64,000 bases of DNA, taken from NCBI GenBank assembly GCA_963663545.1, contig OY760505.1, positions 873,185 to 937,184 of the forward strand. The letters run 5' to 3'. A program made the translations under genes and the position numbers. Numbering within the stretch: position 1 is the first letter of the stretch; every line of letters begins with the position of its first letter. Under the pieces are notes generated by a model. It did not search any database. It saw only the letters and a program-made list of their open reading frames with translations, and was not told the origin of the DNA. The stretch is from Candidatus Delongbacteria bacterium (lineage in GTDB: Bacteria > CAIWAD01). This document shows positions 1 through 64,000 of this stretch, piece after piece.

Positions 1-598
1 GAGCCGCCTGCGGAAGGGTCAGTGCTACTCCGCGCAAGGCGGCCAGCTCGCGTGCTACACCGTGAAGGGAAAGCCAATCACCGCGATTTTGTGTCACCTC
101 AACGTCGATCACCACATCTTGCCAGCCGTGTTCTTCGGCCAGCGGACGACCGGCGGGCCAGACTTCGGCATCCAGGTCCAGAATGCCTGCGTGACTGTCG
201 CTGAGACCCAGCTCTACTTCACTGCAAAGCATGCCACAACTCTCGACGCCGCGAATTTTGGCCTTCTTCAAAGGCTGATTGTCCAGACCAGGCAGTTTGC
301 TTCCCAGCTGAGCCAGCGCCGTGGTCATGCCCAGACGCAGATTCGGTGCGCCGCAGACCAGACGCAGCGGCTCTTCGCCGCCGAAGTCGACGGTGGCCAG
401 ACGCAGTTTGTCGGCGTCCGGATGCGGATCCACCTGTATCACATGCGCCGCAACGACGCCTTCAAGACTACGCTCGATGCGTGTCACGCTTTCCACTTCC
501 AGACCGGCCATGGTCAGTTCGTGAACCAGTTGTGACACGCCCTCTTCGCTGGTATCAATGGCGATGAAATCGCTGAGCCAGTTCAGGGAGATTTTCAT
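1..598 (-). CDS. pheT: phenylalanine--tRNA ligase beta subunit, N-terminal part (truncated by window edge)
   Basis: Minus-strand translation from ATG at 598 gives MKISLNWLSDFIAIDTSEEGVSQLVHELTMAGLEVE..., a typical PheT N-terminus. AGGAGCA RBS precedes it. It lies immediately downstream of pheS. Not in the ORF table because it has no stop inside the window. Confidence 0.8.
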   Translation of the reverse strand, partial: MKISLNWLSDFIAIDTSEEGVSQLVHELTMAGLEVESVTRIERSLEGVVAAHVIQVDPHPDADKLRLATVDFGGEEPLRLVCGAPNLRLGMTTALAQLGSKLPGLDNQPLKKAKIRGVESCGMLCSEVELGLSDSHAGILDLDAEVWPAGRPLAEEHGWQDVVIDVEVTQNRGDWLSLHGVARELAALRGVALTLPQAA

Positions 599-626
599 TC
601 CCATGCTCCTTTTCTATGTGTCACAA

Positions 627-1631
627 CTAGAACTGCTTGAGAAAGCGCAGATCGTTTTCGTAGAAGAGACGGATGTCGTCTACTTCGTAGAGCAACATGG
701 CCATGCGCTCGATGCCAAGACCGAAAGCGAAGCCGCTATACTCGGCAGGATCGATCTCTACACCGCGTAACACATTGGGATGCACCATACCGCTGCCGCC
801 CATTTCCAGCCAGCCGGACTGCTTGCAGACGCGGCAGCCCTGGCCCTTGCAGAAGATGCAGGTCACGTCCACCTCTGCCGAAGGCGTGGTGAAGGGAAAG
901 TAGTGCGGGCGGAAGCGCAGTTGGGTATCAGCGCCAAAAATCTGGCGGTAGAAGCCCAGCAGCGTTCCCTTGAGGTCGGCGAAACTGATGCCGTGATCCA
1001 CGCAAAGTCCCTCGACCTGCATGAACATCGGGCTGTGGGTAGCGTCGGGCTTGTCGTTGCGGTACACGCGTCCGGGAGCGATGATGCGCAGCGGCGGCTT
1101 GACCTTCTGCATCACACGCACCTGCACGGGGCTGGTCTCGGTGCGCAGCATGTGGCCCTGCTCAAGATACAGGCTGTCCTCCTCGGCGCGGGCGGGATGC
1201 CAGAAAGGCGTGTTGAGCATGTCAAAGTTGTAGTGCTCGGTCTCGACTTCCGGGCCGTCCTCGACAGTGAAACCCATGCGGGTGAACACGCTGATGATCA
1301 GCTCGCGCATCTGCTCCAGCGGGTGCAGGCGTCCGCGTGATACAGGATGCCCCGGCAGGCTCAGATCCACACCGGCCACACTCTGGCTGCGCTTCATGTT
1401 GTCCTGGATTTCGTTGAAGGCGGCGGTCAGCTCCTGCTTGAGCTCGTTGAGCTGCTGGCCTAGGCGCGGACGCTCTGCCGCGTCGGCGTCCTTCATCAAC
1501 AAAAAGAGCTTCTGCACTTCGCCTTTGCGGCCTAGCCAGTCAGCGTGGAAGGCCTTGAGTGCGTCAAGGTCTGCAACCGCTTTCAGCTCGGCGGTGAAGC
1601 GCTGGCGCAGCTCGTTCATTCTTTGTTGCAT
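627..1631 (-). CDS. pheS: phenylalanine--tRNA ligase alpha subunit
   Basis: 334-aa ORF with class II aaRS motifs (…FRPHYFPFTTPSAEVDV…GSGMVHPNVL…GFAFGLGIERMAML). Conserved position upstream of pheT. Confidence 0.95.
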   Translation of the reverse strand: MQQRMNELRQRFTAELKAVADLDALKAFHADWLGRKGEVQKLFLLMKDADAAERPRLGQQLNELKQELTAAFNEIQDNMKRSQSVAGVDLSLPGHPVSRGRLHPLEQMRELIISVFTRMGFTVEDGPEVETEHYNFDMLNTPFWHPARAEEDSLYLEQGHMLRTETSPVQVRVMQKVKPPLRIIAPGRVYRNDKPDATHSPMFMQVEGLCVDHGISFADLKGTLLGFYRQIFGADTQLRFRPHYFPFTTPSAEVDVTCIFCKGQGCRVCKQSGWLEMGGSGMVHPNVLRGVEIDPAEYSGFAFGLGIERMAMLLYEVDDIRLFYENDLRFLKQF

Positions 1632-1732
1632 TCTGCTTCCCTCTTCTATCGAAATCGGGATTCTCTACTACGTTCGCGATCAGCTCCGCCTGCGGCGGAA
1701 AGCTCTGGTTCTTTGCTGCGCAAAGAGAAAGC

Positions 1733-1764
1733 CTACTTTTCTTTGTTGCGACAAAGAAAAGTAG
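1733..1764 (-). promoter_or_regulatory. perfect 13-bp inverted repeat (ctacttttctttg / caaagaaaagtag, 6-nt loop). On the minus strand it is followed by GCUUUCUCUUU. Putative pheST leader attenuator/terminator.
   Basis: Seen directly: arms 1733-1745 and 1752-1764 are exact reverse complements. A U-rich tract follows on the pheS-sense strand about 90 nt upstream of the pheS start. In E. coli, pheST is controlled by attenuation at this position. Confidence 0.4.
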
Positions 1765-1937
1765 CAAAAGAAAGCGCTCGCTCCCTCCGACCCGAGGATT
1801 GTTGACCACTGGTCAACAACCGCGGGCGGGCACCACTTGCTTGCTAGAAGGCTACGCTCATTGATTCAGACCTTCGGTCTTCATCACTGGCCTAACGGCC
1901 ATTTATTGAGCGCAACCAGTGATGGAAGGACTCGCTT

Positions 1938-1962
1938 CAAAGAGAAATGTCCCCTTGCGGGG
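1938..1962 (-). terminator. intrinsic-terminator-like hairpin (aaatgtcccc-ttgc-ggggacattt) downstream of rplT
   Basis: 10-bp GC-rich stem. On the minus strand it is followed by UUUCUCUUU. Located about 30 nt after the rplT stop. Confidence 0.45.
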
Positions 1963-1991
1963 ACATTTTGCGTATGCTGAGTCGCGCCGCT

Positions 1992-2336
1992 CTACTTGAC
2001 TGATTCCACGAGGGCGTTAAAAGCCTCGGGATTGCGCACGGCCATGTCAGCCAGCTGCTTGCGGTCGATGTCGATGTTCTTCTCGTCCAGCAGGTGGATG
2101 AAGCGCGAGTAGCTCAGGTCGTGCATGCGCACGGCGGCGTTGATGCGCGTGATCCACAGGCGACGGAAATCACCTTTGCGACGCTTGCGATGAGCAGTCG
2201 AGAAAGCAAGACCACGGTCGATGGCGGCCAGCGTCTGACGAACCAGATTATTACGTCCGCCACGATAGCCCTTGGCGGCGGCAAATGCGCGCTTGCGGCG
2301 AGCCTTGGAGGCGGGATTATTTGTTGCTCTCGGCAT
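1992..2336 (-). CDS. rplT: 50S ribosomal protein L20
   Basis: 114 aa, MPRATNNPASKARRKRAFAAAKGYRGGRNNL... is a canonical L20 sequence. Confidence 0.95.
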   Translation of the reverse strand: MPRATNNPASKARRKRAFAAAKGYRGGRNNLVRQTLAAIDRGLAFSTAHRKRRKGDFRRLWITRINAAVRMHDLSYSRFIHLLDEKNIDIDRKQLADMAVRNPEAFNALVESVK

Positions 2337-2348
2337 GGGACTACCTCC

Positions 2349-2543
2349 TTACTTGCCTAACATAGCCTTCACGCGCGGCTCGTCCACTTCGGCCACGATC
2401 AGGGACTTCCGCAGACCGCGCTTGCGATCAGGGCTTTTCTTGGTCAGAATATGGCTGCCGTAGGCCTGGTTGCGCTTGACGCGCCCGGTTCCGGTCAGCT
2501 TGAAGCGCTTTGCAGCAGCGCGCCGGGTTCTCATCTTGGGCAT
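2349..2543 (-). CDS. rpmI: 50S ribosomal protein L35
   Basis: 64 aa, [36 protein letters not shown]... is canonical L35. Confidence 0.95.
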
Positions 2544-2582
2544 GATATATCCTCCAGTTCTTCTTGTTGACGCTTCGCCAGA

Positions 2583-3137
2583 CTACTTGCGCTTCTTGGG
2601 CGCCAGCAGCAGGGTCATATTGCGCGGCCCATCCATCCGGGGAGCCTGCTCGACGTTGGCCACGTCCTTGACCAGTTCGATGAACTGCTCCAGAATGCCA
2701 GAGCCCAGCTCCTTGTGGGTGATCATGCGACCGCGGAAAATCACAAAGACCTTGACCTTGTTGCCCTCTTCGAGGAACTCCTGCGCACGGGCAGCCTTGG
2801 TCTTGAGATCGTTGGGACCAATCTTCGGCGACAGGCGCACACCCTTTACGGTGACGGTGTGCTGCTTGGCCTTGGCCACTTTTTCCTTTTTGGCCTGCTC
2901 GTACAGAAATTTGCCATAGTCCAGGATCTTGCAGACCGGGGGATCGGCGTTGGGAGAAATCTCAACCAGATCCTGCCCTGCCTCTTCAGCCAGCACCAAA
3001 GCCTCCTGCAAGGAGACGACGCCGCGCTGTTCGCCCTCTTCGTCAATCAGACGCACTTCGGCTGCGCGAATGCCGCCGTTCAACCGATGCTTTTGCGCCT
3101 GTACCTTAGGACGCTGAAAGAACTTGCCTCTGGCGAT
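2583..3137 (-). CDS. infC: translation initiation factor IF-3, probable non-AUG (AUC) start
   Basis: ORF-table protein (…GGIRAAEVRLIDEEGEQRGVVSLQEALVLAEEAGQDLVEISPNADPPVCKILDYGKF…) is IF-3. The frame stays open upstream to a TAG at 3168-3170 with no in-frame ATG. An AGGAG at 3144-3148 is followed 6 nt later by ATC at 3137-3135. That start gives an N-terminus (M)IARGKFFQRPKVQAQKHRLNGGIR…, the same length as E. coli IF-3, which uses AUU. Confidence 0.8.
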   Translation of the reverse strand: MARGKFFQRPKVQAQKHRLNGGIRAAEVRLIDEEGEQRGVVSLQEALVLAEEAGQDLVEISPNADPPVCKILDYGKFLYEQAKKEKVAKAKQHTVTVKGVRLSPKIGPNDLKTKAARAQEFLEEGNKVKVFVIFRGRMITHKELGSGILEQFIELVKDVANVEQAPRMDGPRNMTLLLAPKKRK

Positions 3138-3193
3138 GATGTACTCCTTTAAGGATGACCAACTGACCTATCGCGGCCGCAAAGCGGGAGCCT

Positions 3194-5131
<1,938 letters not shown>

Positions 5132-5259
5132 GGTCCTTTCCTCTTCCTTTCCGGGGTGACGTGCGCCAGCAACGCCTTCCCCTATGGCAGCGAACAAGCC
5201 CCCGCGGGGGCCTGTTGCAGTTTCAATGCAAGCAGCAAGTGGTACTGGCTGCTTTCAAG

Positions 5260-5333
5260 TGGGCGGTACGGGATTCGAACCTGTGACCCCTAGCGTGTCG
5301 AGCTAGTGCTCTAACCAACTGAGCTAACCGCCC
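5260..5333 (-). tRNA. tRNA-Val (anticodon GAC), CCA not encoded
   Basis: Reverse complement reads GGGCGGTTAGCTCAGTTGGTTAGAGCACTAGCTCGACACGCTAGGGGTCACAGGTTCGAATCCCGTACCGCCCA. It has a 7-bp acceptor stem, a D-arm identical to E. coli tRNA-Val, an anticodon loop UCGACAC, and a T-loop TTCGAAT. Unusual features: C33, and an A51·C63 mismatch in the T-stem. Confidence 0.7.
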
Positions 5334-5486
5334 AAGAAAGACCGAGAAGATAGCGTGGGAGGAGCAGCTTGTCAAGTCCACTCCCCCTTAATCGGTATCG
5401 GTGCCCATTCTCCGCGCCGCCCTTTTCCTGTTGTAATATCGAGACACAGATCGCAGATTGGGCGTACACAGATCCGGAGAATAGCG

Positions 5487-7778
5487 ATGAACACGAACAA
5501 GAGTTTCCTGATGGCAGCTGTGCTGATGATTGCAGCATGTGCTGTAGCACAGACGGGTACCTACGCCGACTACGAGTACCTCTCAAGTGCTGAGATCTCA
5601 CCGGAAGGGCACGCATCCACATTTGTATCCGGAGAGGCTCTCTGGGAGCCCATTCACACGAACGGTGCATTCAACATCTCCGACTTATGCTGCCCCATGT
5701 TTATGGGTCTGGCAACTTGTGGCGCAGACTACGTCATCAATCTTACCGAAGACCAATACGAGTATGTCTTCCAGGGTGGCCTGGTGATGCAATCTCCCGG
5801 TGTAAGTCTAGACGTTGAGGATACATTGGAAGAAATACGCAGTGCCGTGCAGGAGCCCCATCACTACACCGGTTTCGCCATTGTCGATGGTGATACACAG
5901 GCCGTTACGACCTATCTGAAGTTTCTTCACAACGAATATGCTGTAGCACAGTATTGTGCCGGACTAGTGCGAGCCGAGCTGGATAGTCTTGACCAACCAA
6001 CCGGCATCTACGACACACTCTACGTGACACAAGCTGAAACGGACTGGCTGATTCAGCCATTGCCAACGACTGCGGGTGAAGAAGTCATTGTAGTTGACGG
6101 CGTCTGTCGACTGGAAGGCTTTGTTGAGGGACGTATCACGGTGCTGGCCTCTGACAGCATGTTCATCATGGATGATCTGGTCACAAGCGATGTCGTCTTG
6201 AGCAACTGCGGCGATAACTCCTTTGGTCGCGTTCCGGAAGGTTCGAGCAACTGCATCGGCCTGATTGGTGAGAAGGATATCATTGTTGCCGCCACAGTCC
6301 CGAACGGTGCTTTCGACGGTGCTTACCTTGGCGAACACTTCTGTGTATCACAGATGGGGCCAGCCTGGCAGGGTGGACCGGCCATGCCGGCAAACATCGA
6401 CTCGTGCTCCGGTGCGTACAAAGATGTTGTTATCACCGCCAGTATCATGGCTCTTGGCTGTACTTTTGAGACCGAATTCTGGCACACATCGGCAACGGCT
6501 TCACCCATTCCGCCCAGTGAAGGGACAGGCATGGGTAGTACCAGCCTTTGCAATGAGGGTTTGAATGATTCCCACGTTGCCTACTGGGACTGTGGATTTT
6601 CAACAACCGCGGATCGCCGCGGCACTCTCTGGTTTGACGGTTCCCTGGTGCAGATCCTGCGCGGCTATCGAGTGCGAAATCCCATTGGCCCTTGGGGAAA
6701 CGCCACCATTGGCTATAGCAGTTTCCTGCGACGCTACGATCGCAACCTGTATCACAGAGCACCGCCGATGTGGCCGCCACTTGAGAACTCGGTGCGCTTC
6801 GAGCTCCTGCTACCTCAGGGGATCTCGGCAACTGGCACCATCAAGCCGTGGAAACTTCGAGGACTCGTGAATAGCGATTCCTGCGGTATCTACCTCCCCA
6901 CAACTCTGGAGAATTGCTTTCTGCCCGACTTCTTCAAATGCTCGATCCGTGCTGAGCTTCTCGACGACGAGTTCGAGATCGAAGCCAGAGAAATATTGCT
7001 GGCTGACTCCAGTGCGGCTGTGATACTGCCCTTCCCCGATGTTCCCTTCATCGAAGAGTATCTCCCGGGCGATGAGTTCTTCTATCAACTGGGCTATGGC
7101 GGCTGGAATCGCAATGGAACTAGGCTCCGCTGGACTCTGCAGGCCGGGCCCGTGGCAGCAGAAGCGGAGGCCCTAGGCGTTACTGAAGGTGTACAGCCCG
7201 TCTTCAGCGAGTTCGTTCAGCAGTGGAATTCCACCACAAGCCGCTTTCGTATCACGGAGCGCGCCGATGTGAACCTGCTCGTCCGGCTGGTGGACGGCAG
7301 TGGAAATGTTCTGTCAGAGAGCGAGTTCAGCGACAATCTCTTCGAGCTGCCAGCGCTGGACTCTGCGCTCTTCAGCGATGATGATGCCTACGAGATTCAC
7401 GTGGAAGTCTACGCTCCCTGGTCCGATCAGACCTGGAGTTCCGCAGGCAGCATCAGCTGGTGGTACAATCCCGACACCGCTGTATCACCCGCCGAACTGC
7501 CGCAGGAGCTAAGCCTGCGCGCCTTCCCCAATCCTTTCAATCCGCGTACTACAGTGGAACTGGCGCTACCATTGGCGGGAGAAGTGTGCGTGGAGCTCTT
7601 CGACCTTACGGGCCGCAGTGCGAGCGTGATACGCCGGGGCGCGATGGCTGCAGGTCTGTATCACATTCCCGTGGACGGACAGAACCTTGCCAGCGGTTTG
7701 TATCTGCTGCGCGTCGAGGCGCCCGATGCAGCCGGGCAGCGTCAGCAGCGGGTGCAGAAGCTGCTGCTGGTGAGGTGA
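5487..7778 (+). CDS. secreted protein with N-terminal signal peptide and C-terminal T9SS (Por) sorting domain; paralog 1 of 3
   Basis: Start ATG 5487 (MNTNKSFLMAAVLMIAACAVAQTG…) after GGAGA. C-terminus …FPNPFNPRTTVELALPLAGEVCVELFDLTGRSASVIRRGAMAAGLYHIPVDGQNLASGLYLLRVEAPDAAGQRQQRVQKLLLVR matches the TIGR04183 Por-secretion-tail consensus. The central conserved block (GVCRLEGFVEGRITVLASDSMFIMDDLVTSDV…NCIGLIGEKDIIVAATVPNGAF…) looks like a parallel beta-helix. Confidence 0.85.
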   Translation: MNTNKSFLMAAVLMIAACAVAQTGTYADYEYLSSAEISPEGHASTFVSGEALWEPIHTNGAFNISDLCCPMFMGLATCGADYVINLTEDQYEYVFQGGLVMQSPGVSLDVEDTLEEIRSAVQEPHHYTGFAIVDGDTQAVTTYLKFLHNEYAVAQYCAGLVRAELDSLDQPTGIYDTLYVTQAETDWLIQPLPTTAGEEVIVVDGVCRLEGFVEGRITVLASDSMFIMDDLVTSDVVLSNCGDNSFGRVPEGSSNCIGLIGEKDIIVAATVPNGAFDGAYLGEHFCVSQMGPAWQGGPAMPANIDSCSGAYKDVVITASIMALGCTFETEFWHTSATASPIPPSEGTGMGSTSLCNEGLNDSHVAYWDCGFSTTADRRGTLWFDGSLVQILRGYRVRNPIGPWGNATIGYSSFLRRYDRNLYHRAPPMWPPLENSVRFELLLPQGISATGTIKPWKLRGLVNSDSCGIYLPTTLENCFLPDFFKCSIRAELLDDEFEIEAREILLADSSAAVILPFPDVPFIEEYLPGDEFFYQLGYGGWNRNGTRLRWTLQAGPVAAEAEALGVTEGVQPVFSEFVQQWNSTTSRFRITERADVNLLVRLVDGSGNVLSESEFSDNLFELPALDSALFSDDDAYEIHVEVYAPWSDQTWSSAGSISWWYNPDTAVSPAELPQELSLRAFPNPFNPRTTVELALPLAGEVCVELFDLTGRSASVIRRGAMAAGLYHIPVDGQNLASGLYLLRVEAPDAAGQRQQRVQKLLLVR
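7441..7778 (+). repeat. near-identical ~340-bp direct repeat (copy 1 of 3) encoding the T9SS C-terminal domain. Copy 1 and copy 3 share about 660 bp.
   Basis: Stretches such as tggtggtacaa(t/c)cccgacaccgctgtatcacccgccgaactgccgcaggagctaagcctgcgcgccttccccaatcc recur at 7460, 10100 and 12440. Confidence 0.85.
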
Positions 7779-7796
7779 GACACAAGGGTGGAATAG

Positions 7797-10418: not shown

Positions 10419-10436
10419 CACATAGGCTGAGGAAGC

Positions 10437-16150: not shown

Positions 16151-16151
16151 C

Positions 16152-54642: not shown

Positions 54643-54981
54643 CAGGATGTCCTCTCGTCTTTATTCGAACTTGTTCAAGTTCAGTCACTTCGAGCAGCCG
54701 GGAAGCCGGCCGACGACACGCTATCCGCGCTGATCCTCAACTCGGATTCACTTTCAGGGGGATGATTTCACGTCTTTGTTTTGGTTGATCCGGACCTTGT
54801 GCTTGAACGCAATTGCTGTGCCGTCCTTCCCGACAGCGCACCCTGTGTCCCCCCTCCTGAAAAGAGTGACTAGAAAGGACGAAAAGGAGACGTGAAAATG
54901 TGTGCGGTGTCTGTGCGCGTGCTGTTCCAATTCCTATCTTGGACGCCGTTCTGTGTATCACAAATCAAACAAGGAATGGTC

Positions 54982-56180: not shown

Positions 56181-56193
56181 GTCATGCATGGAA

Positions 56194-56835
56194 TCACTCA
56201 AATTGTGCACGGAACTCTTCCAGCGTATCACGCAGCTGACGGACTTCCGCTTCCAGCGCCTCGACCCGGCTCAGCAGATCCGCCTGATCGCTTGGTGCTT
56301 GCTCTTCAGGAGCGTCTTCTGCGGACCTCAGGTTGGTTGCTGCTTCTTCGGTGAGCGTTTGACGCCATCGGGCTTCCTTCTGTCCCGGTTGTCTCTCCAT
56401 TCGCTGCACCAGCAGCTCTTCGCGCTGACTGAGGCCAAGCAGCAGTTCTTCAACCTCAGCTGTTGATGCCATGGAAAACATGCGTGAGGCACGGCCCCGC
56501 AGCTCTCCAGGAGTCTGGGCACCACGCAGCAGCAGCTCAGAGATCAGGGCAGCTTCTCGTTCACCCAGCTCATAGCCTTGCCGCAGAAGCTGATCATACT
56601 TGCGTGCACGTTGTCCCGCTCCTTCAACATGTCTCACAAGCCCGCGACGCCAAAGGTGATCCAACGCATCCAACACTTCCTGCTCAACCAGTTCCAGCAC
56701 TGGATCGCGGTTGGACTTCTGGTTGCAAGCCGCCAGCAGGGAATTCAGCGTCAGCGGATAGTAATCGGGGGTGGTGGTCTTCTTCTCGTAGAGGCTGGCC
56801 AGTACACGAGCCTCCACAGCACTCAACAATTCCAT
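56194..56835 (-). CDS. yceH: YceH (DUF480/UPF0502) family protein
   Basis: Aligns along its length with E. coli YceH (…LTALEARV…LEKQ.TTP..YPL…N.KTNR.PV…LLLRGAQTPGELR.RA.RM…). Confidence 0.85.
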   Translation of the reverse strand: MELLSAVEARVLASLYEKKTTTPDYYPLTLNSLLAACNQKSNRDPVLELVEQEVLDALDHLWRRGLVRHVEGAGQRARKYDQLLRQGYELGEREAALISELLLRGAQTPGELRGRASRMFSMASTAEVEELLLGLSQREELLVQRMERQPGQKEARWRQTLTEEAATNLRSAEDAPEEQAPSDQADLLSRVEALEAEVRQLRDTLEEFRAQFE

Positions 56836-56844: not shown

Positions 56845-57507
56845 CTATTCAGGCAGAACGTGCAACAGCATGGCGAAGAAGTGACACACGCTCCCGCCAA
56901 GTACAAAGAGATGCCAGACGGGATGCGACCAGGGCAGCTTCTTCCAAGCGTAAAAGACAATGCCTCCCGTGTAGCACAGGCCGCCAACGCCTAACCACAT
57001 CATACCCATGCCGCCCAAGGCGTGCAGCATGGGACGCAGGGCGATCAGCACCAACCACCCCATGCCCAGATAGGTCATCACGGACAGGATGCGCCAGCGG
57101 CCGATGAATAGCGTTTCCAGTAGAATGCCCACCAGCGCCAGTCCCCAAACGAGGCCGAAAAGCGTCCAGCCCCAGGGACCGCGCAATGAGACCAGCGTGA
57201 AGGGAGTATAGGTGCCAGCGATCAATAGATGAATAGCGGCATGATCCAGACGACGCATTACCGCGCGCACACGCGGGTAAGGTATGGCGTGATACAAGGT
57301 GGAGGCCAGATAGAGCAGCACCAGACTGGTGCCGTAGATACTGAAAGCCGTGATACGCCAGGGATCTCCCTGTCCGGCGGCCATCACGACCAGGATCACC
57401 AGTCCTGCCACACCCAGCAAGGCACCGATGCCGTGACTCACGCTACTGGCAATTTCTTCGCCTATCGTATAGTTCTTCGTTGTCATGCGTTTCTCATCTG
57501 CTCCCAT
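56845..57507 (-). CDS. hemolysin-III (PAQR) family membrane protein
   Basis: 7-TM PAQR topology with conserved His residues in an HlyIII-like arrangement. Confidence 0.8.
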   Translation of the reverse strand: MGADEKRMTTKNYTIGEEIASSVSHGIGALLGVAGLVILVVMAAGQGDPWRITAFSIYGTSLVLLYLASTLYHAIPYPRVRAVMRRLDHAAIHLLIAGTYTPFTLVSLRGPWGWTLFGLVWGLALVGILLETLFIGRWRILSVMTYLGMGWLVLIALRPMLHALGGMGMMWLGVGGLCYTGGIVFYAWKKLPWSHPVWHLFVLGGSVCHFFAMLLHVLPE

Positions 57508-58508
57508 TCAGCCAACAGTTTATCCTCGCGCACAGAGTCCAGTCCGGCGCGCCATTTCCACGACACTCCGCGCTCTTGCAGTGACCAGGCTTCACGCTCC
57601 TCGATGAAAGCTGCTGTATCACGAAGAGTCTCCGCCAGGGGTCGGAAGCGCAGGCCAGCTTCTATCGCTAAGCGGCAATTCACACGATTATGTCCAGCGT
57701 ATCCCTCCTGCGGAACCCATAGCGGCAACTCCATGTAGGGGGCTACTTCGCGCTCCAAAAGCCAGGTTTCCTCCGCCCAGACCGGTTCGATCTGCGTGCC
57801 CAGGGACTCGGCTCCTGCCCGCAGAAAGGAACCCATCGACAACGTGTCTTCAGGACCTGTGGCGTGATACACTCCGCCACACTGCCGTTCAAGCAGGTCC
57901 AGACACCACTCAGCCAAATCGCGACCATCGATGAACTGCACGGGGTCCTGCGGCTTTCCGGGTGCCAGCAGTCTGCCGCCTTGTTGCAGCCGGCGTATCC
58001 AATAACTGAAGCGATCGCTTGGATCACGGGGGCCGACAATCAGTCCGGGGCGCACAATCAGAGCACGTTCACCAAATGCCTGCAGCACTTCTTGCTCGCA
58101 AATGGCTTTGTAGGGACCGTAGGTCTCGCCGGTAATCGTCTCTTCAGCGCCATCGGGGAGCTGCCCCAGCGGCGCATCTTCCGTGGCACCGACAGGAATG
58201 GGCTCGGCATACACGGAGATGGAGGAAACAAAAAGGTATCGTGACACACGCGATTTCAGCGTCTGCGCGCTCTGTCGCACAATGCGCGGAAAATACCCGC
58301 ACGTATCTACAACGGCGTCCCAACAACTTTCGCCCAGTGCATCCAAGCCTCCGTCGCGGTTTCCGTGTATCACCTCGGCTCCCGTAGGCGCGTACCCAGG
58401 ATTGGATTTCCCTCTGTGGAATAGGCTCACTTCGTGCCCACGCGCCAAGGCCAACTCAGCCATGTGCCGCCCCAGAAAAAGGCTACCGCCAAGAATCAGA
58501 ATACGCAT
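57483..58508 (-). CDS. NAD-dependent epimerase/dehydratase (SDR family)
   Basis: Start set at MRILILGGSLFLGRHM (ATG 58508, GGGAG upstream). Rossmann GxxGxxG. Confidence 0.8.
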   Translation of the reverse strand: MRILILGGSLFLGRHMAELALARGHEVSLFHRGKSNPGYAPTGAEVIHGNRDGGLDALGESCWDAVVDTCGYFPRIVRQSAQTLKSRVSRYLFVSSISVYAEPIPVGATEDAPLGQLPDGAEETITGETYGPYKAICEQEVLQAFGERALIVRPGLIVGPRDPSDRFSYWIRRLQQGGRLLAPGKPQDPVQFIDGRDLAEWCLDLLERQCGGVYHATGPEDTLSMGSFLRAGAESLGTQIEPVWAEETWLLEREVAPYMELPLWVPQEGYAGHNRVNCRLAIEAGLRFRPLAETLRDTAAFIEEREAWSLQERGVSWKWRAGLDSVREDKLLAEWEQMRNA

Positions 58509-58510
58509 TG

Positions 58511-60331
58511 TCAGCTCCCATGCTTGTTGCTTGCTCTGCTTCCTTTTCCCTTTGGCCACCTCTGATTCTTTGACCTCGTCACGCTACCGCCTTGCCCGGG
58601 TTTGCGTCGCCCGGCTTCGCCTTCGGGCTTCATCACATCCTTCTGTCGTTGACGAGCAGCCCAGGACCGTTCAACGTAGATTTCACTTCCCGTCGCGGGA
58701 TCGATACCTGTGTGATACATGGTGGCAGACCATGTTCCAGGCAATGGTGTGTAGATCTGTATTTCGTCTGGCAACAGGCCCAACTCACTTTTACACCAGT
58801 CGCGCAGTTCGCGGGCGTGATCCATTGTGCAAGCAGGGTGTGCGGCCATGAGGTAATACACCAGTCCGCGCTTGATCCGCAAAGCAGAAAGCCTTTTGCG
58901 AAAGAGTTGGTGAAAACGCTCCACTAATTCCTTGCCGGGTTTCCCCATTGCCTGTAGCACGGCATGGCTGCAATGCTCAGGCGCCAGTCGCAGGCGACCT
59001 CCCGTGTGATGCAGCAGCAGTTCATCCAGGCATGTTGCGGGATCACGATCCGCCAGCAGCAGATCGTGACGCAGACCGGAGGCAACGCGCACCTGTTTTA
59101 CGCCAGGCAGCTGTCGCAATTGACGAAGCAGCTCAATCCAAGGTTTGTGATTCACACCAAGCGAACTGCATGCTGCTGGAAACAAGCACCGTTTGTCGGC
59201 ACAAGCTCCTTTGCGCACTTTCAACGCACACTCGTAGCCGTACATGTTGGCGGTGGGACCGGAAAGGTCCTGTATCACACCCTTGAAATCCTTGCGCTTG
59301 CTCAGGACGCGCGCTTCACGTAGCAGACTGGCCGGACTGCGGAAATGCACGCGCCGTCCTTCGTGAGCGGCTACCGCGCAGAAGTTGCATTCGCCATAGC
59401 AACCCCGATGGCTGACCAGTGAATGTCGGATGGTCTCAATGGCGCGCACCTCTCCCTGTGCTGCATCACGCGGATGCACCTCGCGCGTGAAGGGCAGTTC
59501 GTGAATGCGATCCAGCTCAGCCTGCTCGGGGACCTGCGGAGGTGGATTCTGCACCAGCCAGCGCGTGTCCTGTCGCTGTGCCAGACGACGTCCGCGAACG
59601 GGATCGCAGTTCTCGTACCAGCTACGAAAGGCTCGCAGATAGGCCTGTTTGTCCACGCGCACTTCCTCGTATGAGGGCAACTCAAGTGCATCAGCGGGCA
59701 GCTCCGTCGACAGGGTACACAAACCGCGAATTGTGCTTGTATCACAAGCATCTCGCAGCGATGCTGCCAACTCCAGGACACTGCCCTCAGCCATGCCATA
59801 GAGCAGGAAATCGGCGCGCGCGTCCACCAGCAGACTACGACGTACTTTGTCACTCCAGTAGTCGTAATGCGCGACACGCCGCAGACTAGCCTCAAGCCCA
59901 CCCAACACGATCGGTACACCGGCTTTCGTGTGACGCCGGATCAAATTGGCGTAGATCAAACTGGCTCGATCGGGACGCCGCTCATTGCGCCCGCCGGGCG
60001 TGTAATCGTCGCTGCGTCGCGGTTTGCCTTGGGCCGTGCGATTGGCCACCATGCTATCCAAACAGCCAGCGGTGATCCCCCAGAAGAGTCGCGGTTCGCC
60101 CAGTCGCAAGATGTCCGTGTCACTGTTCACATCGGGTTGCGCAATCACACCAACCCGATATCCAGCGGCCTCGAGCACGCGAGCAATGACGGCTACTCCT
60201 ACCTGTGGAGAATCGATGAAAGCGTCGCCGGTCACCAGAATCACATCCAGACGATCCCAGTTGCGAGCTTTCAGCTCTGCGCCATCAACGGGTGGAAACC
60301 GGAATTGTGTCACACTGCACCTTCGCTGCAT
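58511..60331 (-). CDS. ygiQ: YgiQ-family radical SAM protein (UPF0313)
   Basis: N-terminal …DVILVTGDAFIDSPQVGVAVIARVL… and radical SAM motif CYGECNFC. Lys/Arg-rich C-terminal tail typical of YgiQ. Confidence 0.85.
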   Translation of the reverse strand: MQRRCSVTQFRFPPVDGAELKARNWDRLDVILVTGDAFIDSPQVGVAVIARVLEAAGYRVGVIAQPDVNSDTDILRLGEPRLFWGITAGCLDSMVANRTAQGKPRRSDDYTPGGRNERRPDRASLIYANLIRRHTKAGVPIVLGGLEASLRRVAHYDYWSDKVRRSLLVDARADFLLYGMAEGSVLELAASLRDACDTSTIRGLCTLSTELPADALELPSYEEVRVDKQAYLRAFRSWYENCDPVRGRRLAQRQDTRWLVQNPPPQVPEQAELDRIHELPFTREVHPRDAAQGEVRAIETIRHSLVSHRGCYGECNFCAVAAHEGRRVHFRSPASLLREARVLSKRKDFKGVIQDLSGPTANMYGYECALKVRKGACADKRCLFPAACSSLGVNHKPWIELLRQLRQLPGVKQVRVASGLRHDLLLADRDPATCLDELLLHHTGGRLRLAPEHCSHAVLQAMGKPGKELVERFHQLFRKRLSALRIKRGLVYYLMAAHPACTMDHARELRDWCKSELGLLPDEIQIYTPLPGTWSATMYHTGIDPATGSEIYVERSWAARQRQKDVMKPEGEAGRRKPGQGGSVTRSKNQRWPKGKGSRASNKHGS

Positions 60332-60668: not shown

Positions 60669-61490
60669 TCACTTTGCAACCTCCTTGACGGCACACAGGG
60701 AGAACATCAACGGCAGTCCTCCCTTGGGTTCGGGTGACACATACATGCCATCGTCCCGTCTCACCAGAAAGCCATGGGAACGGTAGGGCAGGTAGTTATG
60801 CTCATGAAAGAAGACCAGACGGAGGCCGGCGTCCAGCACAGCCTGTATCACATCGGCAAGGCCGAATTCCCACTCGTAGCTGGTGCCGCTTACTTCGGCG
60901 TTAGCATCGGCGTAACTTCCCTCAACGGGGTAGATACTTGGCTCCTGCTGACGAAAGTATGGATTGGCCAATGCAGCGGGAAGAGACTTTGTGTCCATAT
61001 CCAACATGGTTGCGGCGGGATGAAACTCGCGCAAGTAGAGCCTTCCGCCGGGTTTGATGCAGGCGGTCAGATTTCGTGCCCATGCTTTCAAATCGTGCAA
61101 CCAGCATAACACGCCGGCGCTGGTGAACACCAGATCAAAGCGCCCATGCAGTGTGGTTGGCAATTCCAAGACGTTGGCCTCGATGAACTCGGCTTGCAGA
61201 TTTGTATCACAGCTCAGTTGTCTGGCAAAAGCAATGGCACGCGGAGAAAAGTCAAGGCCTGTGACACGTGCTCCGCGTCTGGCCCAGGAAAGGGTATCCA
61301 TGCCGAAATGACACTGGGTGTGAAGCAGCTCCAAGCCCTGCACCGGACCGACTTCTTCTACTTCGACAGGCAGAAGTGAACACGAACCGGCCAGGAAAGC
61401 GGCTAGATCGTAGAACTCGCTGTTGACGTGGATGTCCGTCCAGGCGTCCCAAAGTGCCCGATTGGCGTGCAAGCCCTCACCTACGCTCAT
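60669..61490 (-). CDS. class I SAM-dependent methyltransferase
   Basis: Motif I …RVTGLDFSPRAIAF… and overall MTase fold pattern. Confidence 0.8.
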   Translation of the reverse strand: MSVGEGLHANRALWDAWTDIHVNSEFYDLAAFLAGSCSLLPVEVEEVGPVQGLELLHTQCHFGMDTLSWARRGARVTGLDFSPRAIAFARQLSCDTNLQAEFIEANVLELPTTLHGRFDLVFTSAGVLCWLHDLKAWARNLTACIKPGGRLYLREFHPAATMLDMDTKSLPAALANPYFRQQEPSIYPVEGSYADANAEVSGTSYEWEFGLADVIQAVLDAGLRLVFFHEHNYLPYRSHGFLVRRDDGMYVSPEPKGGLPLMFSLCAVKEVAK

Positions 61491-62476
61491 TCTTCATTCT
61501 CCCCGGAAAAGAGCATCTCAAAATCCGCCCACAATGGATCACGCCTGCTGATGCTTGACATCGTCTCCGTGACACGCTCAAGCACCATCGGATCGGCACG
61601 CAGGGTTGCAAGTGCTTCCAATGTTTCAAGTGCCGTAGGGCCGCCACCCAGCAGAAGACCACAGAGCAGGCTCATGGCCTCATCGTGTCTCAGTAGAGCG
61701 AGCGCGGTCAGTAAAGGACGCCGTTCGTCCGGCAGCATCGCCTCCTGCCATAGTTCTCGCAGAAGCGGCCATGCCGCAGGCAAGCGGCTTGCCCCCAGAG
61801 CGAGCACCAAAGACTCGCGAAGCAAGTCATCTTGACCGGCAGCTTTTAGTAGGCGTTTGAGGGCAGGTAGTGCCAACTCTGCATCTAGTGCAAGCAGGGC
61901 GGCAGCGCATTCGCCTACCACCTCGGGCACAACATCTCCGCTCTTGAGCTTGTGATACAAAAGTGCGCGGGCGCCTTCGCTGTCATGGCGACTCAACTGC
62001 CTAGCGGCACCGGCACGCGCACTCGCTTCGTGATCCGCCAGCAATCCACCTAACTCTACCAGCGCCGACATATTGCCATCCAGCAAGGCGGAAGCCGCCT
62101 GCACGCGAACTTCTGCGGCGGTATCCACACTTCCGCCCCAGACGGGCTCCCATTGTTCGTAACACACAGCCATGCGCAAGAGATCTTCGTCGTACCAACT
62201 CAGCTCTTCCAGCGCCGCAAGAATTGCTGACAGCGCCTTGCAGCCAGGATCACGCTTGCGCCCGAATTTCATGCAGGTTTCTGCCGCCTGAACCAGCTGC
62301 GGAATCAGTGTCTCCAGGTCGTGCTCTCCCACTAAAACAGCAGCACCAGCGATCACCGTACCGCTGGTTGCTTTCAGCAGGCGGGTGCACTCCTGTACTA
62401 CACGATCATCGCCCATTGGCAGTTGCCGCAGTTCCTTCAGCAGATCCAGCTGCTGTTGCGTGGTCTCGCGTGCCAT
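61487..62476 (-). CDS. HEAT-repeat protein
   Basis: Repetitive Ala/Leu-rich helical pairs typical of HEAT/PBS lyase repeats. Confidence 0.65.
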   Translation of the reverse strand: MARETTQQQLDLLKELRQLPMGDDRVVQECTRLLKATSGTVIAGAAVLVGEHDLETLIPQLVQAAETCMKFGRKRDPGCKALSAILAALEELSWYDEDLLRMAVCYEQWEPVWGGSVDTAAEVRVQAASALLDGNMSALVELGGLLADHEASARAGAARQLSRHDSEGARALLYHKLKSGDVVPEVVGECAAALLALDAELALPALKRLLKAAGQDDLLRESLVLALGASRLPAAWPLLRELWQEAMLPDERRPLLTALALLRHDEAMSLLCGLLLGGGPTALETLEALATLRADPMVLERVTETMSSISRRDPLWADFEMLFSGENEE

Positions 62477-62477
62477 C

Positions 62478-63215
62478 CTACTTGCGTCCTATGGCCAGCA
62501 GAGCGCAAGGAAACTCTACACCGACAGTGTGCAATCGCGTGCGCAGTTCTTCTCCCTGCGCTGCGAGCTCCTGCAGCTCATCGTGCTCAGCAATACGCTT
62601 CAGATACTGGTCAAGGCCCTGTTCCATGCGGGCGATTAGTTCGGAATTGTGCGGATCACAAGGCGGCGCGTCGTGCTCCAGGATCTCCATGGAATTGCAA
62701 GGGAGATCACGCAAGAAGGATTCCAGTGCTGCTCGCGTCCACGTGGGATTGTGTATCACGCCCAGGGCGGTGTCCACGCGTCCCCACCAGTGATGCAGCA
62801 GCACCTGGGTTTGCTGTGTATCACGCAGCTGGTCCGCATACATTTCCAGCACAATCAGATGTCCGCCCGGTTTGAGCACGCGTAGGGCTTCCAGCAGAAC
62901 AGGTCGCGCCTCCTCCAGGTGATGCAGCGAACAGGAAATGCCCACCGTGTCGAAACTCTCATCGGGAAAATCGAGGTGCAGAATATCCATTTCCATGAAT
63001 CGAACCCGGGGATCGCCTATGCTACGCTCAGCGGCAGCCAAGGCCGGCGTGCTGTGATCCACCGCGATGATCTCGTCAATTTCGGCAAGAGCACTCAAGA
63101 GCGTTGCTACGAACTGACCCGCGCCCGTGGCCAGGTCAAGCACGCGTCCACCGTGAATATTCCCTAGTGGATTGGAATCCTGCACGATCTCCTCCTCAGT
63201 TGTTTCCGGTGACAC
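62478..63215 (-). CDS. class I SAM-dependent methyltransferase
   Basis: …VLDLATGAGQFV… motif I, and …LKPGGHLIVLE… motif. Confidence 0.75.
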   Translation of the reverse strand: MSPETTEEEIVQDSNPLGNIHGGRVLDLATGAGQFVATLLSALAEIDEIIAVDHSTPALAAAERSIGDPRVRFMEMDILHLDFPDESFDTVGISCSLHHLEEARPVLLEALRVLKPGGHLIVLEMYADQLRDTQQTQVLLHHWWGRVDTALGVIHNPTWTRAALESFLRDLPCNSMEILEHDAPPCDPHNSELIARMEQGLDQYLKRIAEHDELQELAAQGEELRTRLHTVGVEFPCALLAIGRK

Positions 63216-63449
63216 GATTTCACCCTACGCCAGCGGTTTGGATTGCACATCTGTCGCGGCCACTGGGCAAAATCTTCTGTGTTGCCCTGCCTTGAATATT
63301 GCGAAGTTGTGCCGCGAGTCACACTCCCATCGTGGCAGCAAAAGCCTTCTGACGGCTCCAGAAGCGCTCTGCGATGGCGGTATCTGAGTCTTCCGGAGTG
63401 GCCCCGTGCCGAGGTTCCGGCCGACTCTCAGCTAATGCGGAGAGATCCG

Positions 63450-64000
63450 ATGCAGTTCAACGGACGCGAGTACAAAGCTTTCGCAGGTGCTTTCAACACA
63501 CCTGAGTATACCAGCACCCTGGTGGCCCGACGCGGTGCCGCCCCCATTCCCCACCGTGGCAACAAGGTCACGACCCTGGACGCAGTCATGGAACTGATCC
63601 AGGATGGTGATACAATCAGCTACCCGCACTATTATCGCACCGGCGATCAGGGTCTGCAGATGGTGGTGGACACTCTGCGCCGTCACGGTAAGCGCGGCAT
63701 CATTCTTTACGGCAATGCCTTCTTCGACAACGCGGACCCCTGGCTGATCGACGCTTTCGCCGACGGTACGCTGGCCGGCTTGTATGGCAACCCCTACCGC
63801 ATGGTGGGTGGACGCATTCTGAAGGGTGAGATTCGCCCCTGGGTCAGCGTTGGCGTGAGTCACGGCAATCGCGTCCGCAAGCTGCAAACGGGCGAAGTGC
63901 ACGTCAAGATGGCCTTCGGTCCGGTCCCGATGGCCGACCGCTACGGCAACGCCAGTGGTTGCATGGGCAAGCCGGAACACTACTGCGGACCTCTGGGCCT
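63450..64000 (+). CDS. citF: citrate lyase alpha chain (citrate CoA-transferase), N-terminal part, truncated by window end
   Basis: My own translation from ATG 63450 gives MQFNGREYKAFAGAFNTPEY…DGDTISYPHYYRTGDQ…VRKLQTGEVHVKMAFGPVPMADRYGNASGCMGKPEHYCGPLG. It aligns with E. coli CitF: …DGMTVSFHHAFRGGD… and …[47 protein letters not shown] RBS upstream. Not in the ORF table because it has no stop in the window. Confidence 0.8.
   Translation, partial: MQFNGREYKAFAGAFNTPEYTSTLVARRGAAPIPHRGNKVTTLDAVMELIQDGDTISYPHYYRTGDQGLQMVVDTLRRHGKRGIILYGNAFFDNADPWLIDAFADGTLAGLYGNPYRMVGGRILKGEIRPWVSVGVSHGNRVRKLQTGEVHVKMAFGPVPMADRYGNASGCMGKPEHYCGPLG

Follow-up and report, generated by a model that had tools for sequence, protein, structure and literature searches.

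A 64,000-base stretch of contig OY760505.1 (Candidatus Delongbacteria bacterium), called here the window, is densely seeded with one short word, the heptamer GTATCAC (or its reverse complement GTGATAC). In its extended form, YGTATCACR, it appears to be a lineage-specific genomic word, made and kept inside genes by a sequence-specific force that acts genome-wide. The clade that carries it would be an uncultured one of the Fibrobacteres–Chlorobi–Bacteroidetes (FCB) group, related to Calditrichota/KSB1. Among the explanations considered, we tentatively place first a role in natural transformation, as a self-recognition word that molecular drive would have spread, comparable to the uptake signal sequences (USS) of Pasteurellaceae and the DNA uptake sequences (DUS) of Neisseriaceae. 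Sequence-specific uptake has been demonstrated in those two proteobacterial families only, with the cyanobacterial highly iterated palindrome HIP1 recently suggested as a third case. What is new here is an actively maintained, hyper-abundant word in a distant, uncultured lineage of phylum level.

Count, expectation, and consensus of the word

Counts refer to the core GTATCAC/GTGATAC on the plus strand of the window. Two tools gave the same result: 60 exact copies of GTATCAC and 38 of GTGATAC, thus 98 copies, or about one per 650 bases (1.5–1.65 per kb). The original prediction, made by eye, had come close with about 59 and about 36 copies and a more than 10-fold enrichment (98 are counted, against 4–12 expected); its GC content of ∼62% has to be lowered to 57.0%. 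The exact count against a Markov background that it proposed, run here on the window, gives 4.3–12.1 expected copies with orders 0–3 and 27 with order 4, and 100 dinucleotide-preserving shuffles of the window gave 4.2 ± 2.3 copies (maximum 13). The excess is 13- to 23-fold. GTATCAC is the most frequent 7-mer of the window, with the top z-score, and its 8- and 9-mer extensions head their own lists.

The base preceding the core is T in 69 and C in 23 of the 98 copies, as had been noticed, and the base following it is G in 43, A in 32, C in 16, and T in 7. No conservation extends beyond positions −1 and +8 in the 98 aligned copies, hence the consensus Y-GTATCAC-R, with a symmetric outer frame (YGT...ACR) and an asymmetric center. 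The word is not a perfect palindrome, since GTATCAC differs from its reverse complement GTGATAC and only the outer frame is symmetric; of the symmetric versions, neither GTATTAC nor GTGTCAC comes near the frequency of GTATCAC in the window. Words with one change at positions 1, 5, 6, or 7 are depleted (40 observed vs. 64.8 expected) and those with one change at positions 2–4 are enriched (171 vs. 79.6), chiefly GTGTCAC (41 vs. 7.6) and GTAACAC (20 vs. 2.8). The strict core is G1, C5, A6, and C7, with tolerance at positions 2–4, mainly for A3>G and T4>A. Such a pattern fits graded recognition together with conversion toward the word.

The copies are clustered (coefficient of variation of the spacing 1.25), which rules out regular spacing, and the two orientations follow each other at random along the window (runs test z = 1.4). 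Resemblances to a DnaA box, a CRP half-site, or an IHF-like site were rejected, as none fits without an indel or a mismatch. None of these sites is known to occur at the density of the word. A full-text search found no paper in the library covered that contains it in either orientation, which agrees with the earlier statement that it was not recognizable as a described element.

A signal at the DNA level with a footprint in the proteome

Open reading frames (ORFs), which cover 91% of the window, hold 95 of the 98 copies, and only three copies are intergenic. Neither a mainly intergenic position (95/98 are in ORFs) nor a similarity reaching past the core, as in repetitive extragenic palindromes (REP) or miniature inverted-repeat transposable elements (MITE), was found. 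Within ORFs, the word is used in all five stop-free frames (12, 13, and 16 copies in the sense frames, 31 and 23 in the antisense frames) and never in the sixth (xxG-TGA-TAC), which contains a stop codon; the same usage of five frames without the TGA frame recurs in the relative L003. The independence from frame and strand that had been claimed is thus real within the permitted frames, and it rules out a peptide motif.

With the proteins fixed and host codon usage, 10.7 copies are predicted and 96 observed, which rules out an artefact of codon usage. The sites at which the proteins would allow the word mostly carry it: 32 of 45 V-I-[LPHQR] sites, 24 of 30 [CRSG]-D-T sites, 16 of 18 x-Y-H sites, and 13 of 19 [CRSG]-I-T sites. 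Of the ATA codons in host genes, 46% fall within the word. In addition, the tripeptides that encode it are themselves 2.5–3 times enriched: VI[LPHQR] occurs 45 times (17.7 expected; the reverse-order control 11 vs. 17.7) and [CRSG]DT 30 times (10.6 expected; the reverse-order control 4 vs. 10.6). From the failure of the codon model and the tripeptide excess, it follows that the word overrides codon preference and has changed amino-acid sequences. The proteome is reshaped to the extent that nearly half of the ATA codons and most of the x-Y-H, x-D-T, and V-I-x sites of the window are due to the word.

Genes without the word and low-GC islets

The word is unevenly distributed among genes. The native block formed by rplT, rpmI, infC, and thrS (1344–5889) has no copy in 4.5 kb (P = 0.0005), and thrS and infC have none in any relative examined. 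These four genes are highly expressed and have a strong codon bias; over the window, word density and codon adaptation are inversely correlated (rho = −0.43, P = 0.003). At the other end, density peaks at 2.6–3.7 copies per kb in three tandem paralogs (5355–12773, plus strand) with a sorting tail of the type IX secretion system (T9SS).

Two low-GC islets, at 12800–15000 (48% GC) and 25850–29500 (38% GC), contain one copy each, at 13186 and 27481, in agreement with the single copies reported before. Jointly, they have 2 copies where 9.7 are expected at the host density of 1.65 per kb (P = 0.004). The composition of the islets itself predicts 0.8 copies, so that they are at chance level. Depletion of the islets had been read as the mark of a host-lineage signature; the depletion is confirmed, but a low density need not signal foreign DNA, as highly expressed, codon-biased native genes such as the thrS-infC-rpmI-rplT block are also without the word.

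Relatives and the evolution of sites

The PheS sequence places the organism in an uncultured clade of the FCB group, where the nearest named metagenome-assembled genomes (MAGs) are labeled Calditrichaeota, KSB1, and Electryoneota; the tree is a neighbor-joining tree of a single gene, given without support values, and the records of some relatives carry unreliable “Bacteroidaceae” labels. The figures for relatives rest on samples of 15–23 kb. A species with 92% PheS identity (L001, L082, and L083) shares the excess. In L001, 17 copies were counted in 15.1 kb against 1.9 expected; in L082, at ∼73% nucleotide identity, 33 in 22.6 kb; and in L083, 30 in 18.6 kb. At ∼70% PheS identity, L003 has 23 copies in 21 kb (2.9 expected), and the excess is weak in other lineages (7 copies in L002/L085, 6 in L077, and 4 in L086, against ∼1 expected). 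No excess is seen in L004, L005, L084, and L087, a subgroup with 65%–71% GC, and about 70 distant loci (Calditrichia, Acidobacteriota, Aminicenantes, Desulfobacterota, and others) are at chance level. By accession, the genomes with a weak excess include CAZMSD01, JAUIFJ01, and JACKCN01, and those lacking it include DYSB01 and CAIWAD01. The word is therefore the signature of a clade, as the original prediction had it for the host lineage.

The positive loci come from separate samples and assemblers: ERZ21878212 (L001 and L083), ERZ21831093 (L082), and CAYFPS01 (L003). Such recurrence excludes an assembly artefact. More generally, the probability that the excess is an artefact, whether through miscounting, gene repeats, the usage of codons or peptides, or faulty assembly where a motif is modified, is negligible, and the counts refute it. 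Seven copies do derive from the three paralogous genes at 5355–12773, but they are only 7 of 98 and 91 independent contexts remain, so that the earlier judgment that a few repeated genes are not the cause was correct. The agreement of the two tools, the peptide and codon expectation of 10.7 against 96, and the independent assemblies all stand against an artefact, and systematic errors converting a normally frequent word could add only ∼10 copies.

There are differences between lineages. In L003, nearly all copies read TGTATCAC, with T at −1 in 22 of 23 and no excess of GTGTCAC. In the window lineage, C is tolerated at −1 and GTGTCAC is in 5-fold excess; GTGTCAC is enriched in the window, in L082, and in L077, not in L003, and in L077 it is as frequent as GTATCAC. 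These sequences point to a possible difference of dialect between L003 on one side and the window, L082, and L077 on the other. A palindromic dialect in L007 (GTGATCAC) was rejected, as it has four sites only and is not significant.

To compare individual sites, codon alignments of 15 orthologs from the window and L082 were used, with a mean nucleotide identity of 0.73. These genes contain 30 sites in the window and 29 in L082, 14 of them common to both. From 7-mers of the same gene and the same frame, 4.6 of 30 would be expected (z = 4.9), so that conservation is about three times the background. Identity per position is 0.70–0.93 within the word and ∼0.62 over the nine bases on each side, under the gene mean. 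About half of the sites are private to one lineage, and these mostly stand one or two substitutions apart in the two genomes, often an exchange between A3 and G3. In the pheS-pheT block, no site is common to the window and the relatives with ∼70% PheS identity, and the new sites fall at residues that vary among lineages. With an excess of conservation on the one hand and private and new sites on the other, the word is both preserved and continually re-created in weakly constrained sequence.

The same comparison bears on a neutral explanation, in which a context-specific mutation or mismatch-repair bias, similar to very-short-patch repair, would produce the word as a functionless by-product. 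Between close relatives, sites arise through one or two point changes; this, the position of the most frequent neighboring word one transition away (A3 to or from G3), and the depletion of one-off words at some positions would all suit it. However, known repair biases shift word frequencies by less than about 2-fold, against 13- to 23-fold here; the one-off depletion spans four positions and not a single repaired base; conservation reaches three times the background at the sites and is below average in their flanks; and sister lineages that have diverged to a similar degree would have to lack the bias. Because of the size of the excess, the specificity at several positions, and the excess conservation, we regard a neutral origin as very improbable.

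Orientation and polarity

GC skew is negative over almost the whole window, which therefore probably lies on a single replichore; the sample for polarity is one chromosomal region per genome. Orientation is near-balanced and, as in USS and DUS, polarity is absent. The ratio GTATCAC:GTGATAC is 60:38 in the raw count and 55:36 without the paralog copies (P = 0.06), and the composition of the plus strand alone predicts ∼58% in the observed direction. Among relatives, the ratio is 9:8 in L001, 12:21 in L082, 9:14 in L003, and 7:0 in L002; pooled, ∼58% of the relatives' copies read GTGATAC on the G-rich strand. An orientation linked to transcription was rejected, with 17:12 in plus-strand genes and 42:24 in minus-strand genes.

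Crossover hotspot instigator (Chi) sites (E. coli GCTGGTGG), the FtsK-orienting polar sequences (KOPS), and the architecture-imparting sequences (AIMS) are likewise short, asymmetric words over-represented in the core genome. Unlike the word, which is near-balanced and occurs ∼1.5 times per kb, they are strongly co-oriented with replication and much sparser. Here, the share on the G-rich strand (58%–61%) is no more than composition predicts, weaker than the strong co-orientation of Chi, and neither the raw 60:38 nor the 55:36 without paralogs approaches the skew above 80%–90% of KOPS and architecture motifs. A near-balanced orientation argues that the word is not Chi- or KOPS-like and leaves the USS/DUS-like and HIP1-like types. 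From the classes named in the original prediction (uptake sequences, HIP1-like elements, and Chi or architecture motifs), the first two thus stand and the last is disfavored by the 55:36 ratio.

A Chi-like word would be a self marker read by RecBCD/AddAB, so that host DNA is repaired and foreign DNA without the word is degraded. The word is short and asymmetric, in excess in host DNA, and missing from the acquired islets, which would serve this purpose; the mild excess of GTGATAC (58%–61%) on the G-rich, presumably leading, strand and the five copies in a RecQ-family helicase gene go in the same direction. On the other hand, known Chi sites are about 75% or more co-oriented with replication, and the 55:36 ratio (P = 0.06, with ∼58% given by composition), the 9:8 of L001, and the opposite sense of the 7:0 of L002 do not resemble this. 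With a copy every 0.65 kb and an excess of 13- to 23-fold, the word is far above Chi (∼one per 4.5 kb in E. coli), and a saturating density reached at a cost in amino acids is hard to explain under this reading because the gain in fitness per site would be negligible. Weak polarity and extreme density make a Chi-like role improbable, if somewhat less so than the neutral origin.

Comparison with known systems

The USS of Pasteurellaceae (AAGTGCGGT/ACAAGCGGT) share most of the properties described above. They are non-palindromic, occur ∼1 per kb on both strands, are mostly genic, and use all usable frames, with an excess of the encoded tripeptides, a preference for poorly conserved positions, no polarity, and one-off variants graded by position. 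For the uptake sequences of Haemophilus, Actinobacillus, and Neisseria, the encoded tripeptides are reported to be about twice as frequent, genes and residues of poor conservation to be favored, and genes without homologs in relatives to have no copies; the genome of H. influenzae has 1,471 copies and that of N. meningitidis 1,892 (PMC2817400), and the density of the word falls in the range of USS and DUS. The word differs in its unrelated sequence and in its occurrence in another phylum (an uncultured FCB-group lineage).

In Neisseriaceae, the DUS (GCCGTCTGAA with its dialects, recognized by the minor pilin ComP) are also hyper-abundant and clade-specific, with dialect-like differences, and they are absent from mobile or acquired DNA, a property that has been used to find integrative conjugative elements (PMC7371117). 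Unlike the word, with 95 of 98 copies in ORFs, DUS have only ∼35% of their copies in ORFs (PMC2817400).

HIP1 (GCGATCGC) of cyanobacteria is 15- to 300-fold over-represented, reaches more than one copy per gene, and lies in ORFs; its sites are conserved between genomes beyond background (PMC5861425), as are 14 of 30 here against 4.6 expected, and it shows patchy exceptions within its clade (PMC4390886). It differs from the word in being a perfect palindrome with two orphan methyltransferases, the word being asymmetric at its center. A HIP1-like word would be recognized by an orphan methyltransferase or a nucleoid protein and selected for structure, for repair, or for protection or recombination after uptake. 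Its hyper-abundance in genes together with site conservation in orthologs, from which Xu et al. argued likewise for selection on HIP1 (PMC5861425), speaks for such a word, and the palindromic outer frame YGT...ACR would suit a dimeric binder of double-stranded DNA. A neighboring lineage, L006, has a true hyper-abundant palindrome inside genes (ACTTCCGGAAGT). HIP1, moreover, appears tied to transformation, which it is reported to raise in a methylation-dependent way (10.1101/2024.09.10.611283), and it has been proposed as an uptake sequence (10.64898/2026.06.24.733823). Against a HIP1-like role, the word is non-palindromic, with GTATTAC and GTGTCAC much rarer than GTATCAC; the window has no methyltransferase of host-like composition, its only DNA methyltransferase being the C5 enzyme of a foreign islet; and with a copy every 650 bp, structural selection on a single site should be tiny, yet codons and amino acids are overridden. 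We consider this explanation rather unlikely, but clearly more probable than a Chi-like one; in our order, it follows the USS/DUS-like word and precedes the Chi-like word, the neutral repair bias, and the artefact.

The word as a candidate uptake sequence

The USS/DUS-like explanation, to which we give a tentative preference, invokes biased transmission. Filling 70%–90% of the encodable sites and overriding codon usage is more easily explained by biased transmission than by structural or repair selection on each site. At one copy per 650 bases, each extra copy could add almost nothing to a structural or repair role, and it is for this reason that biased transmission is favored and a USS/DUS-like word ranked first. 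The driving force, we infer, would be biased DNA uptake or transformation. The uptake or transformation machinery would prefer fragments that carry the word; because of this preference, alleles that gain the word by point mutation would enter other genomes and recombine into them more often, and would thus spread (molecular drive). The word would then build up where protein constraint permits. It would be missing from genes under strong coding or codon constraint and from recent acquisitions, the latter because they have not yet been exposed to the drive.

Several observations weigh against this proposal. A mild strand asymmetry of 58%–61% remains. The strict core measures 7 bp, flanked by one base (Y/R) on either side and by no AT-rich segments, and is shorter than USS (9 bp plus flanks) or DUS (10–12 bp). 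Many DUS sit as inverted pairs in terminators, and no such pair is present in the window, where the three intergenic copies are all unpaired. The most-used frame, GTG-ATA-C, requires the rare codon ATA, whereas the frames of USS are reported to follow preferred codons (PMC2817400). The 64-kb window contains no gene for competence, pilus, or the initiation of recombination (RecBCD/AddAB). HIP1 shows the same evolutionary signatures, and its function is debated between methylation, nucleoid structure, and transformation (PMC5861425, 10.1101/2024.09.10.611283). Finally, everything is drawn from 64 kb and samples of ∼20 kb from relatives.

If the signatures of USS and DUS hold, self-preferring gene exchange, or another strong genome-wide sequence-specific drive, would have arisen independently far from the known cases; in recent papers, USS and DUS are still regarded as restricted to Pasteurellaceae and Neisseriaceae. 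A further step, which we hold with less assurance than the uptake reading itself, is that the word could be the first DNA uptake or transformation word of the FCB superphylum and of an uncultured lineage, with dialects in sister lineages and with the ACTTCCGGAAGT of L006 in the same role. In that case, sequence-biased transformation would have evolved repeatedly, would be widespread in environmental bacteria, and would be detectable from MAG sequences. The word would also give a computational marker of native versus recently acquired DNA in MAGs (for binning, islands, and mobile elements), and the sister lineages, some positive, some weak, and some negative, offer a natural set for comparison in which the cognate receptor or enzyme could be sought by phylogenetic profiling.

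Copies along the window and neighboring genes

The window is an ordinary piece of chromosome, with pheT-pheS-rplT-rpmI-infC-thrS, transporters, a sensor kinase, a GH53 glycosidase, methyltransferases, a cytochrome-rich oxidase-like protein, a large S8 protease, a RecQ-family helicase, and the T9SS-tail paralogs. Gene calls are ORFs with a codon score, most of them checked against Pfam. Copies are given below with their strand, their direction (sense or antisense) relative to the named ORF, and the three residues encoded at the word. The coordinates that had been cited as examples were right within a few bases and become 436, 1337, 6133, 6345, 7482, 7658, 20289, 24863, 41269, 47779, and 62818.

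At the left end, the ORF 2–604(−) has an antisense (+) copy, TGTATCACA at 436–442 (VIQ), also present in the 92% relative L001, and pheS (627–1631, −) has a sense (−) copy, TGTATCACG at 1337–1343 (VSR), not present in L001. Beyond the word-free block come the three T9SS-tail paralogs (807, 873, and 778 aa), which have Por_Secre_tail C-terminal sorting domains, no other recognizable domain, and the lowest codon adaptation in the window; all seven non-independent copies are found there. The first (5355–7778, +) has sense (+) copies CGTATCACG at 6133–6139 (RIT), TGTATCACA at 6345–6351 (VSQ) and 6749–6755 (LYH), and, as paralog copies, CGTATCACG at 7249–7255 (RIT), TGTATCACC at 7482–7488 (VSP), and TGTATCACA at 7658–7664 (LYH); its antisense (−) copies are TGTATCACC at 5890–5896 (GDT), AGTATCACA at 7020–7026 (VIL), and the paralog copy CGTATCACG at 7626–7632 (VIR). 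The second (7797–10418, +) has in sense (+) CGTATCACA at 8440–8446 (RIT), TGTATCACC at 9056–9062 (LYH), and the paralog copies TGTATCACC at 10122–10128 (VSP) and TGTATCACA at 10298–10304 (LYH), and in antisense (−) TGTATCACC at 9382–9388 (GDT), TGTATCACG at 9879–9885 (VIH), and the paralog copy CGTATCACG at 10266–10272 (VIR). In the third (10437–12773, +), the sense (+) copies are AGTATCACC at 10545–10551 (VSP) and the paralog copies CGTATCACA at 12244–12250 (RIT), TGTATCACC at 12477–12483 (VSP), and TGTATCACA at 12653–12659 (LYH); the antisense (−) copies are TGTATCACA at 11964–11970 (VIQ) and the paralog copy CGTATCACG at 12621–12627 (VIR).

The 48% GC islet follows. At 12860–14687(−), an HNH endonuclease (186 aa) adjoins a C5 cytosine DNA methyltransferase (411 aa, dcm superfamily), the sole DNA methyltransferase of the window, and the two likely form a Type II restriction–modification (R-M) pair. 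The only copy of the islet, TGTATCACG at 13186–13192 (−, VSR), is in sense in the endonuclease ORF (12860–13420, −). The pair was rejected as a partner of the word, since it lies in a foreign low-GC islet and its presence throughout the clade is not expected.

Three plus-strand ORFs then carry one sense (+) and one antisense (−) copy each: 16113–17456(+), with CGTATCACG at 16807–16813 (RIT) and CGTATCACT at 16764–16770 (VIR), respectively; 17460–18908(+), with CGTATCACG at 18799–18805 (RIT) and GGTATCACA at 17730–17736 (VIP); and 18901–19761(+), with CGTATCACG at 18918–18924 (TYH) and TGTATCACG at 19412–19418 (RDT). On the minus strand, 20224–21177(−) has TGTATCACG at 20922–20928 (VSR) and CGTATCACG at 20948–20954 (RIT) in sense (−) and TGTATCACG at 20289–20295 (VIQ) in antisense (+), and 21190–22083(−) has TGTATCACA at 21463–21469 (−, sense, LYH) and TGTATCACC at 21335–21341 (+, antisense, GDT).

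The RecQ-family helicase (23346–25043, −) scores above the cutoff of the recQ_fam subfamily and below that of the RecQ equivalog. Its five copies (2.9 per kb) recall the reported enrichment of DUS in genome-maintenance genes, for a single gene; all are antisense (+): TGTATCACA at 24056–24062 (VIH), GGTATCACG at 24476–24482 (VIP), TGTATCACA at 24592–24598 (CDT), TGTATCACC at 24863–24869 (VIQ), and TGTATCACG at 25037–25043 (VIH). An intergenic copy, TGTATCACA, is at 25078–25084(−). The 38% GC island contains a B12-binding radical SAM enzyme (26052–27626, −), a 411-aa protein without family match (27643–28878), and a fragment of an IS1595-type transposase (29111–29416), and it is probably a recent insertion; its only copy is AGTATCACA at 27481–27487 (+, CDT), antisense in the radical SAM ORF. 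In cutC (30834–31565, −), two antisense (+) copies, TGTATCACA at 31211–31217 (VIQ) and TGTATCACG at 31396–31402 (RDT), precede a tandem pair at the 5′ end of the ORF, CGTATCACGCTGTATCACGCG at 31549–31565, which had been described over the cutC start and is real; its first member is CGTATCACG at 31549–31555(+) and its second TGTATCACG at 31559–31565(+).

In 32489–33715(−), the sense (−) copies CGTATCACG at 32549–32555 (AYH) and TGTATCACG at 32963–32969 (LYH) accompany the antisense (+) copy TGTATCACC at 33288–33294 (GDT). The ORF 33758–35374(−) has one copy in sense (−), CGTATCACG at 34248–34254 (RIT), and three in antisense (+), TGTATCACT at 34173–34179 (SDT), TGTATCACG at 34383–34389 (RDT), and TGTATCACA at 34927–34933 (VIH); 35358–36536(−) has TGTATCACG at 35381–35387 (+, antisense, VIQ). 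Next, 36738–38726(−) has in sense (−) TGTATCACT at 38178–38184 (LYH), CGTATCACC at 38290–38296 (RIT), and TGTATCACG at 38505–38511 (LYH), and in antisense (+) TGTATCACT at 37711–37717 (SDT) and CGTATCACG at 38690–38696 (VIR). Single copies occur in 38693–39550(−), TGTATCACG at 39367–39373 (−, sense, VSR); in 39619–40539(−), TGTATCACA at 40124–40130 (−, sense, CIT); in 40536–41426(−), TGTATCACA at 41269–41275 (+, antisense, CDT); and in 41237–42574(−), CGTATCACG at 41701–41707 (+, antisense, VIR).

The ORF 43196–45922(−) encodes a protein of ∼890 aa in which a membrane domain like that of cytochrome bd subunit I is fused to c-type cytochrome domains. Homologs 53%–61% identical are widespread in Desulfobacterota and other anaerobes, and a 100%-identical copy is on a 3.72-Mb contig. 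The word occurs in it in sense (−) as CGTATCACG at 44802–44808 (RIT) and TGTATCACA at 45775–45781 (VSH), and in antisense (+) as TGTATCACG at 44091–44097 (RDT). Antisense (+) copies alone are found in 45861–46907(−), TGTATCACG at 46226–46232 (VIQ); in 47105–47794(−), TGTATCACC at 47706–47712 (GDT) and TGTATCACG at 47779–47785 (VIH); in 47772–48983(−), TGTATCACT at 48503–48509 (VIH) and TGTATCACG at 48668–48674 (VIQ); and in 48996–49727(−), CGTATCACG at 49363–49369 (RDT). Both directions occur in 49727–50992(−), with TGTATCACT at 50314–50320 (VSL) and TGTATCACA at 50509–50515 (VSQ) in sense (−) and TGTATCACA at 50875–50881 (VIH) in antisense (+).

An intergenic copy, CGTATCACA at 51087–51093(−), immediately follows a GC-rich hairpin that lies downstream of the S8 protease gene (51100–54642, −). 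The gene itself has two copies and not the single one first reported: TGTATCACA at 53687–53693 (+, antisense, CDT) and GGTATCACT at 54149–54155 (−, sense, GIT). The remaining intergenic copy is TGTATCACA at 54955–54961(+).

Further on, 55212–56231(−) has one sense (−) copy, TGTATCACC at 55770–55776 (LYH), and the antisense (+) copies TGTATCACG at 55522–55528 (RDT), TGTATCACC at 56015–56021 (VIQ), and CGTATCACG at 56225–56231 (VIR). Both copies of 56845–57507(−) are in sense (−), TGTATCACG at 57289–57295 (LYH) and CGTATCACG at 57350–57356 (RIT). In 57483–58559(−), the sense (−) copy TGTATCACG at 57864–57870 (VYH) lies between the antisense (+) copies TGTATCACG at 57616–57622 (RDT) and TGTATCACC at 58367–58373 (VIH); in 58511–60331(−), the sense (−) copy TGTATCACA at 58712–58718 (MYH) is followed by the antisense (+) copies TGTATCACA at 59272–59278 (VIQ) and 59739–59745 (CDT). 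Antisense (+) copies of TGTATCACA are at 60845–60851 (VIQ) and 61204–61210 (CDT) in 60669–61490(−), and a sense (−) copy of TGTATCACA is at 61952–61958 (LYH) in 61487–62476(−). The last ones are TGTATCACG at 62753–62759 (VIH) and 62818–62824 (RDT), both antisense (+) in 62478–63215(−), and TGTATCACC at 63607–63613 (−, GDT), antisense in 63243–63998(+).

Other loci and other words

Directly upstream of thrS, L086 (JACKCN010000002.1, 1–6278) has a defense island, absent there in the window, with a Type I R-M locus (HsdR, HsdS-like), an SMC_N/AAA ATPase, and a Schlafen/AlbA_2 protein. The neighboring FCB lineage L006 (CAZCRT010000043.1, 5240–19960; PheS 61% identical, GC 47%) has the 12-bp palindrome ACTTCCGGAAGT 10 times in 20.4 kb and CTTCCGGAAG 12 times. 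The usual flanks of the palindrome are S-...-S, A-rich on the 5′ side and T-rich on the 3′ side, and several copies fall within long ORFs, pheS and pheT among them. In this lineage, the palindrome may be the counterpart, of a HIP-like kind, to the word of the window.

Among more distant loci, the palindromic octamer CCTGCAGG has 131 sites in 399 kb, against 27 expected (order 3), over 19 loci of Vicinamibacterales. The ∼5-fold excess is consistent across them (L021, L029, L033, L034, L039, L041, L042, L044, L048, L049, L054, L058, L061, L062, L068, L071, L076, L078, and L081). In L033, AGTTTCGC occurs 9 times against 0.5 expected, and in L032 (1–4101), CGTTGGAC occurs 9 times in 4.1 kb against 0.3 expected. 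A long poly-C run in L018 is probably an assembly artefact or a simple repeat.

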